The notes beneath the pieces are model-generated. The model did not search any database. It was not told the origin of the DNA and saw only the letters and a list, made by a program, of their open reading frames with translations. Of a stretch of DNA of 64,000 nucleotides, positions 472 to 49,465 are shown one piece after another. Both the position numbers and the translations under genes were made by a program. The first letter of the stretch is position 1; each line of letters begins with the position of its first letter. Where the stretch lies: the sequence record MK047718.1, one strand, 5' to 3'. The stretch is from Escherichia phage p000y.

Positions 472-489
472 GGGAGACCGAAGTCTCCC
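472..489 (-). terminator. Tetraloop hairpin GGGAGAC-UUCG-GUCUCCC after gene 35 (terminator / mRNA stabiliser)
   Basis: Perfect 7-bp inverted repeat with 4-nt loop; U-run follows on minus strand. Confidence 0.7.
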
Positions 490-8804: not shown

Positions 8805-8822
8805 GGGAGACTTCGGTCTCCC
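8805..8822 (+). terminator. Tetraloop terminator GGGAGAC-UUCG-GUCUCCC + U-run after gene 32
   Basis: 7-bp GC-rich stem, UUCG loop, followed by TTTT. Confidence 0.8.
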
Positions 8823-24036: not shown

Positions 24037-24058
24037 GGGAGACTTCGGTCTCCCTTTT
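24037..24058 (+). terminator. Tetraloop terminator GGGAGAC-UUCG-GUCUCCC + UUUU
   Basis: Same hairpin as at 8805; directly follows the 59-aa ORF. Confidence 0.8.
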
Positions 24059-46189: not shown

Positions 46190-47473
46190 TTATTCATCTA
46201 TAATAATTTTAGGCAATTTAACACCGAGTAAAACAGACAAGTCTGAACGTCCCGCCATTTTATCCATGTCCCCGCCATCAATTACTCTCGCTTCTTTTTC
46301 ATCTTTTGCTACTGTGTAAGGATTTGCTGATAAAGCATATCTAACCAATAATCCAATAGACGGTTGCAAGCTTTCCGGATCAACTACAACTTTAAATGCA
46401 CCAACATGTTCCGGGTCATCTAAATCTACTCCTTCAGTGTATGGAGCATAAAAGATGGACCCTACAATTTCTTTTTCGCCGATATTTTCTACAACACCCA
46501 CAATAACATAATCTAATGGACTGTTGGTATCGCAGTAAAGAGGTAATCCATTTGCCAAGAATCCATAAGCATTTTGTGAAAGATACTTGTCATCTTCTGG
46601 CTTATGTTTTAACCAACCAGAAGCAGCAAGAATAGCAGCTGCACGAGCTGAGGCTACACAAAACGTTGCAGTATAAGTTGTCTCTTTTTGAATGTGTGAT
46701 ACCATTTCACACACCATTCGATATAATGAACGACCTGCTTCTGGAGCGGATGCATAGCTCAAGTCAATAAATCCGGTGTCAGTAATTCCAGTAACTTTAT
46801 AACGTTTCGATACAGTAATTAAAGACTGAAGAATATCTTTATTAATTTCATCAGCCATTTCAGTAGCAAGCAAATCTTCTAAGAAGTTAGGGGCATCAAA
46901 TCCATTCGCTTCCAAATCTTGCGCTAATTCAACCGTGAGGCCAGTTTTAAGTTTACGAGATTTGACTGAAGTTTGCCATTTATTAATCTGGAATCTTGCA
47001 TCAGAAATTTCGCTATCAGAGCTTTCAAATTTGCTTGTTACCGCTGCATCTGAAAATAACCGTACCTTTAAATGAACGACTGCAATCTGAAGAGCTAATT
47101 CTAGATCACTTTCTTGAATATCTGCAAATGGTGTATCTTCTAACACTTTATAGACGATATTATTATATTTGAAAAAATCACCTTTATTTAGTGTGACTTT
47201 TGATTCTTCTGTGAGCTCAGTAATTTTTTCTCGGTCTACATATCCAACTTCGCCAGCATAAGTAGCACCGGTTTTAAATGTGAATTCGTTATCTGGGTTA
47301 AGATATTTGATACCATAAAAAGCAGCAACAGGTTGATTAGTTCTTTGTGTTGCTACAATGTCAGAATATACTAATTTAGTCGTAGCGCGAGTCAAAGCAA
47401 CGAGATTTGGGCGACCAATTGAGTTGCTAGTAGACGTTGTAGATTCACGCAATAATTTTTGGATTTTACTCAT
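46190..47473 (-). CDS. 24: Capsid vertex protein gp24
   Basis: 427 aa, same as T4 gp24; late promoter upstream. Confidence 0.93.
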   Translation of the reverse strand: MSKIQKLLRESTTSTSNSIGRPNLVALTRATTKLVYSDIVATQRTNQPVAAFYGIKYLNPDNEFTFKTGATYAGEVGYVDREKITELTEESKVTLNKGDFFKYNNIVYKVLEDTPFADIQESDLELALQIAVVHLKVRLFSDAAVTSKFESSDSEISDARFQINKWQTSVKSRKLKTGLTVELAQDLEANGFDAPNFLEDLLATEMADEINKDILQSLITVSKRYKVTGITDTGFIDLSYASAPEAGRSLYRMVCEMVSHIQKETTYTATFCVASARAAAILAASGWLKHKPEDDKYLSQNAYGFLANGLPLYCDTNSPLDYVIVGVVENIGEKEIVGSIFYAPYTEGVDLDDPEHVGAFKVVVDPESLQPSIGLLVRYALSANPYTVAKDEKEARVIDGGDMDKMAGRSDLSVLLGVKLPKIIIDE

Positions 47474-47500
47474 TGCATTTTTTCCTTATGTGATATAGAT

Positions 47501-47508
47501 TATTTATA
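47501..47508 (-). promoter_or_regulatory. Late promoter (TATAAATA) for gene 24
   Basis: tatttata 28 nt upstream of gene 24 ATG. Confidence 0.65.
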
Positions 47509-47514
47509 AAGATT

Positions 47515-47544
47515 GTTTACAACGTATTTGGTATGTGATACTAT
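47515..47544 (+). promoter_or_regulatory. T4 early promoter for orphan ORF 47575
   Basis: GTTTAC-N18-TACTAT, leader tcaactacagaggag. Confidence 0.6.
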
Positions 47545-47574
47545 AGACTTATCAACTACAGAGGAGTAAACAAA

Positions 47575-47844
47575 ATGACTAAAGCACGTTTCTTACGAGA
47601 TACTTTAAAAGTTCTGGAAGCTGAAGCAGTTAAGTTAGTAGAAAAATATGGTGCAAAAGTTAATGGTAATGCCTTCAACAAAGTATGGATGAAAGTTGAT
47701 TCTGAAGCTCGAGCTAAAGGTTATTGGGCCACTGATAAACTTGCATCATTCAAAAACAAAGATGGTTCTCCGGCATATGTCCAAGAAGGTATGCCTAATT
47801 GGCAAAATATTTTGAAAACTTACATCGAAATTGCACAGAAATAA
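47575..47844 (+). CDS. Hypothetical orphan early protein between genes 24 and 23
   Basis: 89-aa ORF on the strand opposite the flanking late genes; own early promoter (47515-47544), GAGGAG RBS, tetraloop terminator. Confidence 0.6.
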   Translation: MTKARFLRDTLKVLEAEAVKLVEKYGAKVNGNAFNKVWMKVDSEARAKGYWATDKLASFKNKDGSPAYVQEGMPNWQNILKTYIEIAQK

Positions 47845-47854
47845 AACCAAAAAT

Positions 47855-47872
47855 GGGAGACCGAAGTCTCCC
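47855..47872. terminator. Tetraloop hairpin GGGAGAC-CGAA-GUCUCCC (gene 23 terminator on minus strand; also ends orphan ORF on plus strand)
   Basis: Same element as 472-489; A/U-rich flanks both sides. Confidence 0.75.
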
Positions 47873-47896
47873 AAAATAAGATTTAATCAATTAAGA

Positions 47897-49465
47897 TTAG
47901 ATGCCTTTTACATATACACGGCGGAAGTAAGCGTTCTTACCAAGGCTGTTCAGGATAGATGGCATACCGGACTGGATGCGAGCACCTGGAGCCTGCAGGG
48001 AACTTTCAGCAAACGGGTTAACACCGATACCGTAACGAGTTTTAAAGCCCATTACCGGTTGGAAGTTCTTAGGATCGGAACCACGCAGTGGGGTAAGTGC
48101 AACGTAAGGAGCATAGTAAATACCTGCATCCATTTCGTTAGCGCCTTTGTAACCAACGGTGAAGTAATCCTGTTTAGCATACTGGTCGATGTATACGCGG
48201 TATTTACCACCAAGTACACCGGCAAATACAGATTTAGTAGTGTCGGTATTAAAACCAGAAGCCAGGCCCTGTGCAGCGTAAGAAATACCAGTATCAACTG
48301 AAGCCAGTACGTTAACTACGTTACGGGAAGCGATAATGAAGTTACCTTCACCACGTCCGGTTTGACGAGCAATTTCAACTGCTTCTTTATCAATCTGGAA
48401 CAACAGAGATTTAAAGCTTTCACCGGCCCAACGAGCACCACGGATATCAATCGGGTCCTGGAAGTCAAATACACCGGCTTTAGAACCCGGAGTCAGGGTC
48501 ATACCAGATTTACCAACCTGTGCAGAGTAGTTAATCCAATCAACAACTTCACGGTTGATTTCTAGCATAATTTCCGTAGCCAGAATACCGCTCAGTTCAG
48601 CATCAGCATCCATACCGTGTACTGCACGGAGGTCTTGTGCTAATTCGATAGAGTAAGCAGCTTTCAGCTGGCGAGATTTAGCTTCGATAACTTGTTTATC
48701 GATACGGAAGCCCATTTCATTCCATGGGTTATCGGTAGAACCGTTGAAACCTTCCTGGAGTTCAGCGATAGAAGTAGCCATACCTTCAGCGATTTCTACC
48801 AGTGCACCAGCTTCCATTTGTTTCTTAACTTCTGCATCTAATTTAGCTGCATCAGTTGCACCAGAATCAAGTGTTACGACAGCAGAAGCTTGCAGATATA
48901 CAGTACCAGTTTCTTGGAAGAAGTGAGTATAGATATCACCTACAACAGTAGTAGTGTCAGCAGCCAGAGCTGGGAATTTCTTAGCAGCACCCTGACCAGA
49001 GAACATCGCGTCTGGGGCATACATCGGATGGAAAGCTTCTTTAGCGCCAGCAGCGATAGGGTCTTTACCATATACTGCACGGAGAGCAAATACCTGACCG
49101 GTAGGGCTGTTCATAGGCTGAACACCACAAATATCAAAAGCGATCAGATTAGGAATAGCACGACGAACCATACCCATAACTGCCGGCCCAATTTGGGTTA
49201 CTGCACCAGAGGTTTGACCTGCTGCGATGTTCTGAGCATTATAACCGTGGTCACCACCAATTTCAGCTTCGGTCAAGAAAGAACCAAATGCCTGAGCGAT
49301 TTTCTCGTCTTTATATTCAGGGGATACTTCGAAATCTTTTTCCTGGTTTTCGAAGATTTTAGCGATAATAGCCTGCTTGCTATTAGCGATTTCCGGCAGG
49401 CCTTCACCTTCCAGCAGTTCTTTCCATTTGTCTACGAGCTGAGCTTTAGTTTTGATAGTAGTCAT
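47897..49465 (-). CDS. 23: Major capsid protein gp23
   Basis: 522 aa, MTTIKTKAQLVDKWKELLEGEGLPEIANSKQ... matches T4 gp23. Confidence 0.97.
   Translation of the reverse strand: MTTIKTKAQLVDKWKELLEGEGLPEIANSKQAIIAKIFENQEKDFEVSPEYKDEKIAQAFGSFLTEAEIGGDHGYNAQNIAAGQTSGAVTQIGPAVMGMVRRAIPNLIAFDICGVQPMNSPTGQVFALRAVYGKDPIAAGAKEAFHPMYAPDAMFSGQGAAKKFPALAADTTTVVGDIYTHFFQETGTVYLQASAVVTLDSGATDAAKLDAEVKKQMEAGALVEIAEGMATSIAELQEGFNGSTDNPWNEMGFRIDKQVIEAKSRQLKAAYSIELAQDLRAVHGMDADAELSGILATEIMLEINREVVDWINYSAQVGKSGMTLTPGSKAGVFDFQDPIDIRGARWAGESFKSLLFQIDKEAVEIARQTGRGEGNFIIASRNVVNVLASVDTGISYAAQGLASGFNTDTTKSVFAGVLGGKYRVYIDQYAKQDYFTVGYKGANEMDAGIYYAPYVALTPLRGSDPKNFQPVMGFKTRYGIGVNPFAESSLQAPGARIQSGMPSILNSLGKNAYFRRVYVKGI

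Follow-up and report, generated by a model that had tools for sequence, protein, structure and literature searches.

Arn, AsiA and Acb2/Vs.4 are small early proteins of T4, about 60-95 aa long, that act in host takeover or anti-defence. T4 also carries, between the capsid genes 23 and 24, the gene segD, which encodes a GIY-YIG free-standing homing endonuclease of about 220 aa. Promoter-early stem-loop (PeSL) cassettes of T4-type phages have been described as well (Arbiol et al. 2010, PMC2839356; Comeau et al. 2014, PMC4122927), and the early consensus of the PeSL promoters in T4 and PST is TTTACW-N17-TAYWAT (PMC4122927). A T-even early promoter consensus was also described by Nolan et al. 2006 (PMC1524935), whose supplement lists for RB69 a predicted early promoter (Pe:109605) on the strand of ORF188c, a late promoter (Pl:109573) overlapping it on the gene 24 strand, and a terminator '23-><-RB69ORF188c' on the gene 23 strand. 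Since both promoters and the terminator are listed there for RB69, the anatomy of the unit described below is already in the literature.

The window analyzed in this work is a stretch of 64,000 nucleotides from Escherichia phage p000y (sequence record MK047718.1), a T-even phage of the Mosigvirus (RB69-like) type. The genes gp24 (46190-47473) and gp23 (47897-49465) both lie on its minus strand, separated by a gap of 423 bp. On the plus strand, the gap holds a sigma-70-type early promoter, GTTTAC-N18-TACTAT (47515-47544), with the -35 box GTTTAC (47515-47520, overlapping TTTACA), the -10 box TACTAT (47539-47544) and a TG upstream of the latter (47536-47537). It is followed by a conserved 5' leader (47551-47574) containing the Shine-Dalgarno sequence GAGGAG (47561-47566) 8 nt upstream of the ATG, and by an ORF of 89 aa (47575-47844, ATG to TAA) of the RB69ORF188c/PHROG 6003 family. 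A hairpin, GGGAGAC-CGAA-GTCTCCC, is located at 47855-47872, and its 8-bp stem spans 47854-47873. The promoter, leader, ORF sequence and hairpin were all as the original prediction had described them, and their positions supported its view that an early-type unit on the plus strand stands between two late capsid genes of the minus strand. The minus-strand late promoter of gene 24, TATAAATA (47501-47508), the sole copy of this motif within 47400-47950, and the adjacent gene 24 ribosome-binding region occupy the gp24 side of the gap. RB69ORF188c, JS98 orf173 and VR7ORF190c share family, length, slot and strand with the window gene, with no difference found; the RB69ORF188c homologues are annotated as hypothetical proteins, and PHROG 6003 has no function assigned.

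The motif GTTTAC-N17-19-TANNAT was found 12 times in the 64-kb window, always on the plus strand, compared with 1.1 matches expected. The leader, TATCAAC..GAGGA..ATG, aligned with those of four other early promoter copies in the window, and the same leader also precedes the JS98-type alleles. The site at 47515-47544 shows the features by which T-even early promoters are recognized, namely GTTTAC, a spacer of about 17-18 nt, TG plus TAnnAT, and a gene in front of it; read as TTTACA-N17-TACTAT, it fits the published T4/PST consensus and stands next to a phage-variable ORF. A generic sigma-70 scan gave 6 sites against 9 expected and was set aside as promoter support; it is the strand-exclusive motif family that makes the promoter more than a chance match. 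The gene is in the early promoter class of this genome. Its expression would presumably be early, with transcription starting near 47551.

The gene 24 late promoter lies upstream of the early -35 box, and was kept in every state of the gap, empty sites included. The two promoters are thus back to back and divergent. The plus-strand transcript had been expected to be antisense to the gene 24 promoter region, which does not fit this arrangement, because a transcript starting at about 47551 would run away from 47501-47508. It would be antisense to any read-through RNA from gene 23 into gene 24 and, past the hairpin, to the 3' end of gene 23. As the divergent early and late promoters share DNA, they might interfere with each other as infection proceeds from early to late. 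At 47495-47520, the A/T-rich gene 24 late promoter is exactly where an UP element of the early promoter would be expected.

The hairpin had been proposed to terminate transcription from both sides. On the minus strand, the UUCG loop is followed by AUUUUUGG, and an intrinsic terminator was called on this strand only; on the plus strand, the hairpin forms but is followed by AAAAUAAG, without a U-tract. The folding energies were -16.5 kcal/mol (minus) and -13.5 kcal/mol (plus). Phages teqhad and KM16, whose sites are empty, also have the hairpin, and its stem varies across genera by compensatory changes. In VR7, the hairpin is followed by a T-run on the plus strand. As an empty site consists only of the gene 24 late promoter and the gene 23 hairpin, the hairpin belongs to gene 23 rather than to the cassette, and is its intrinsic terminator, oriented on the minus strand. 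The part of the proposal in which it ends gene 23 transcripts was therefore retained, but the plus-strand unit lacks the U-run, and the idea of a self-contained unit with its own terminator was abandoned. The insert proper thus comprises the early promoter with its leader and one or more genes, whereas the late promoter and the hairpin are residents of the site.

The locus resembles PeSL cassettes in its promoter consensus, variable ORF and block exchange (PMC2839356; PMC4122927). It differs from them in that no stem-loop precedes the promoter, the gene 24 late promoter and ribosome-binding site standing there instead, and in that its single hairpin is found downstream of the ORF, oriented for the opposite strand. 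Furthermore, unlike exchange through PeSL repeats, the exchange breakpoints here are located in the flanking capsid genes. The 18-nt hairpin GGGAGAC-NNNN-GTCTCCC occurs four times in the window (472-489, 8805-8822, 24037-24054 and 47855-47872). Those at 8805 and 24037 face the plus strand, carry a T-run and have early promoters within about 50 nt downstream (8854 and 24092), so that 8805/8854 and 24037/24092 are PeSL-type composite motifs.

The protein matched the PHROG 6003 profile over its whole length (E = 2.1e-45, residues 1-89 to positions 1-90 of 90), and the copy in PhAPEC2 is annotated 'similar to RB69ORF188c'. By tblastn, about 240 phage records carry the protein. About 120 of them are Mosigviruses at 95% identity or more, and the other 120 or so, at 30-38% identity, are of Dhakavirus (JS98 orf173) and Gaprivervirus (VR7ORF190c). 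All T-even copies examined (the window, PhAPEC2, JS98, VR7, 04086, L009 and L011), covering at least three genera and including the metagenomic relatives P0006 and P0016, were located in the gap between genes 23 and 24, on the strand opposite to these genes. The gene is therefore not the orphan it was first taken for. It is already catalogued, and hundreds of genomes list it as hypothetical. The original prediction was to be refuted by a conserved, already characterised T-even gene; the first half of this applies to the gene, the second does not. In the literature searched for RB69ORF188c, for PHROG 6003 and for accessory or anti-defence genes of Mosigviruses, no paper mentioned the family. 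A search for paralogues inside the window gave none. The second match place per record in the nucleotide search was rejected as a gene copy, being the repeated hairpin and promoter.

Of the clusters formed by 5.8 billion proteins, about 20 belong to this small family, and exhaustive profile searching over 1.8 billion representatives gave 9 matches. Two of these were rejected as false positives: both P0022 (1347 aa) and P0024 (3916 aa) are surface proteins with Big_2/Ig repeats, and their scores were sums of many weak matches, pairing all-beta repeats with a mostly helical region. P0020, an otherwise unrelated sequence in which 30 residues of the family are embedded, was also discarded as a probably chimeric assembly. 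The distant members P0021 and P0023 matched the PHROG 6003 profile. Outside the T-even phages, the Vequintavirinae phage ABPH49 and contig L007, which is related to it, carry members in arrays of small ORFs that share one strand, and a further member is in contig L008, similar to 42-kb Serratia siphoviruses. The occurrence of the family in such unrelated phages points to horizontal spread.

In unsaturated pairs, dN/dS was 0.03-0.14, which indicates that the ORF encodes a protein under purifying selection. Between JK45 and 005, for example, there were 7 synonymous and 0 nonsynonymous changes. Intact Mosigvirus copies were 97.8-100% identical in protein among the matches listed, a conservation that an ongoing arms race would not predict. 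Across the divergent alleles, at about 31% identity, the length and the positions of NGNAxN, W51 and Q70 were kept. The comparison thus suggests very divergent alleles, each of them conserved, that move horizontally. Frameshifted or truncated natural copies were found in phages mogra (MN850579.1 65653-65918, copy H70) and 310Ecol104PP (P0019), and they are ready-made knock-outs for phenotypic comparison with intact relatives.

These results bear on whether transcription of the unit could itself be the function, by an early RNA antisense to the gene 23 3' end, or by occlusion of the gene 24 late promoter, with the ORF incidental. The plus-strand hairpin without a U-tract makes antisense read-through into gene 23 plausible, and the windows of the early and late promoters overlap. 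However, the low dN/dS, the conserved frame and length and the strong Shine-Dalgarno sequence at the correct spacing show that the protein is under selection; in addition, homologues occur in other phages without such a context, and the plus-strand T-run of VR7 would stop read-through. A function of transcription alone is thus highly improbable.

The states of the gap were read by searching with both capsid flanks joined and then sizing the gaps. Four states were obtained. An empty gap of 83 bp was found in most Tequatroviruses (teqhad) and in Klebsiella phages, segD only (about 810 bp) in T4, PP01, PST and CGG4-1, the ORF only (416-437 bp) in the phage p000y window, JS98 and VR7, and the ORF with segD (1090-1139 bp) in JK45, F2, 005 and the LF82 series. 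T4 carries segD at exactly the same site and in the same orientation, as stated in the original prediction. The proposed insertion hotspot held insofar as the site is variable, but segD gives no evidence that the ORF was inserted at an endonuclease hotspot. It is an alternative occupant in T4, where it stands alone, but in JK45, F2 and 005 it lies directly downstream of the ORF, beginning 4 nt 3' of its stop codon and sharing its promoter. It is best read as an add-on or an alternative occupant at a shared promoter position. Because of the empty gaps, the segD-only gap of T4 and the natural frameshifted or truncated copies, the gene was considered dispensable.

The T4 segD locus and the window locus have in common the slot, the orientation against the capsid genes, the gene 23 terminator boundary and a homologous early-type promoter abutting the gene 24 late promoter. 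The products are different, as the 89-aa protein has no similarity to SegD, and the window ORF is a separate gene and not a degraded endonuclease. A promoter specific to segD could not be identified in a 2010 review (PMC2988022). In T4, TTTACA-N17-TATTAT with a TG extension was observed 5' of segD (L006:3234-3323, minus strand), at the position homologous to the window early promoter; the homologous position in CGG4-1 holds GTTTAC-N18-TAAAAT (L018:998-1100). Near the C-terminus of gp23, the codons for F-R (window 47921-47926) were TTT AGA in 5/5 segD-positive genomes examined and the synonymous TTC CGY in 7/8 segD-negative genomes, the exception being KM16, which has an empty site with TTT AGA. 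This codon pair could be a signature of SegD target immunity or simply reflect linkage within an exchanged tract. The plausible early promoter before T4 segD and the synonymous codon pair tracking segD at the end of gene 23 are pointers for the study of segD biology.

The exchange of the unit was seen in the comparison with JK45. The DNA of JK45 was 99-100% identical to the window in 46224-47473 and 47956-48855, about 45-55% identical across 47474-47905, and matched at 43/50 positions in 47906-47955. The exchange tract (47474-47955) therefore extends from the gp24 start codon into the last gp23 codons, and in JK45 it holds a JS98-type allele (31% amino-acid identity) and segD. This contrast indicates that the whole unit was exchanged in one piece, through recombination within the capsid genes on either side. 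JK45 (L015) and F2 (L013) are filed under Tequatrovirus, and their gp23/gp24 DNA is 97-99% identical to that of the window, compared with about 89% for T4; they would be either mosaic genomes or wrongly classified.

The block swap ends inside gene 23, where the codons correlate with the presence of segD. Together with the spacing of 4 nt and common promoter in JK45, F2 and 005, and the homologous promoter used by segD in T4 and CGG4-1, this might suggest that the ORF is a passenger or helper of the segD element, spreading with it by hitch-hiking or influencing how segD is expressed or acts, and doing little else. We regard this as distinctly unlikely. Most carriers of the ORF, including all Mosigviruses sampled, JS98 and VR7, lack segD, and T4 shows the converse, with segD alone; no endonuclease gene was called beside the homologues in L007, L008 and ABPH49; and the strong purifying selection argues for a function of the protein itself. 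The title of Sokolov et al. 2018, which states that SegD does not home its own gene, was also counted against it.

Another explanation is that the phage uses this small protein to regulate its own capsid genes by binding nucleic acid, for example the mRNA or promoters of gene 23 or 24, so that the position of the gene is functional. In Mosigvirus, Dhakavirus and Gaprivervirus alike, the gene does occupy this slot, on the strand opposite to the capsid genes, although the proteins share about 31% identity; its early promoter physically abuts the gene 24 late promoter, and the positive charge of the protein is kept across the family. Nevertheless, phages with 89%-identical capsid genes lack the gene, the members in ABPH49, L007 and L008 are away from capsid genes, and divergent alleles function between gp23/gp24 flanks that are 99% identical. 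Moreover, an early gene acting on late genes would be possible but unusual. Regulation of the capsid genes is therefore unlikely.

The protein was modelled with AlphaFold2 on a 14-sequence alignment (pLDDT 89, pTM 0.76). In the model, a helix at 3-25 and a second one at 31-48 are followed by a beta-hairpin at 56-70 and a last helix at 76-88, and the predicted fold is a compact and confident helix-helix-beta-hairpin-helix. The members in the alignment are 84-93 aa long, a range that includes the window protein, hydrophilic and nearly cysteine-free. The pI was about 9.6 for the window protein and 9.2-9.9 in 13/14 members. The invariant columns of the alignment were F6, L21, N30-G31-N32-A33-x-N35, A45, W51 and Q70, to all of which the window protein conforms.

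Foldseek against the PDB gave nothing below E = 0.49, and the BFVD fold search returned a family member only. Profile searches of Pfam, NCBIfam, PADLOC and PDB sequences gave nothing consistent, and no nuclease domain, GIY-YIG included, was found in Pfam at E <= 1. The description of the product as a non-endonuclease without a recognised motif was thus borne out by the Pfam, NCBIfam and PADLOC searches. For known defence and anti-defence families, there was neither a PADLOC or NCBIfam profile match nor a match to a characterised fold. A hit to Pfam DUF4859 (E = 0.0029, under the gathering score) was rejected as chance, because only 2/14 members matched and both are near-identical to the window protein. 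A hit to PHROG 8765, 'internal virion protein' (E = 0.09), was also rejected, being not significant and at odds with the early promoter.

Similar to Arn, AsiA and Acb2/Vs.4, the window gene is small, presumably early, dispensable on laboratory hosts and patchily distributed among T-even phages; it differs from them in that the searches found no characterised protein that it resembles in sequence or fold. The confident, compact fold and the lack of an enzyme-like relative are consistent with a binder. Taken with the inferred timing, we consider that the gene is dispensable and encodes a basic accessory protein expressed early, which probably serves as a binder in host takeover or counter-defence, with a probability of about 0.5 for this reading as a whole, including its binding and target. 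The host sigma-70 RNA polymerase would start at 47515-47544 in the first minutes of infection, and the short leader and strong Shine-Dalgarno sequence would lead to translation of a soluble, basic protein of 89 aa. The plus-strand transcript would meet only the oppositely oriented hairpin of gene 23, which might make the polymerase pause or lend stability to the 3' end, and some transcripts would probably read on, antisense to the end of gene 23. The protein would most likely act alone, as a stoichiometric binder of host nucleic acid or of an acidic protein, in a host takeover or counter-defence that pays off on some hosts only. The block of promoter, leader and gene is exchanged between phages by homologous recombination in the capsid genes, sometimes with segD.

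A more far-reaching version would make PHROG 6003 a new early counter-defence or host-takeover family, with a fold absent from solved structures, exchanged between unrelated virulent phages and mobilised by segD in T-even phages through co-conversion of the 23-24 slot. This version is tentative and rather doubtful as a whole. At present, the findings clarify the annotation and do not amount to a discovery; they describe a catalogued gene in a variable site of a known type, ordinary T-even accessory-gene biology that would not surprise a T4 specialist. The gene is a well-defined candidate among the many uncharacterised early T-even accessory genes. It is also a cheap candidate for host-range and anti-defence tests: the protein is small and has a confident fold, and the gene is dispensable, is kept by purifying selection, moves as a block and also occurs in unrelated phages.

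Some further observations were made on the records compared. P0006 (L009:4001-4273, 90 aa) is named 'NADPH-dependent curcumin reductase CurA' by one source, which appears to be a misannotation from a chance weak match (NCBIfam E = 0.047). Gene 24, which encodes the vertex protein, is tandemly duplicated in JS98 and VR7 (L002:1-2399 and L003:1-2395) and in metagenomic T-even contigs (L009:1337-3901 and L011:1338-3897), and is single in the window and in T4. The stretch 47400-47950 of the window is 100% identical to phages vB_Eco_mar005P1 and moha. By megablast, the same stretch also matched nine records named 'Aeromonas phage', which is unexpected for the stated host, and six of these nine give A. 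hydrophila BIOTECH 10089 as the host.
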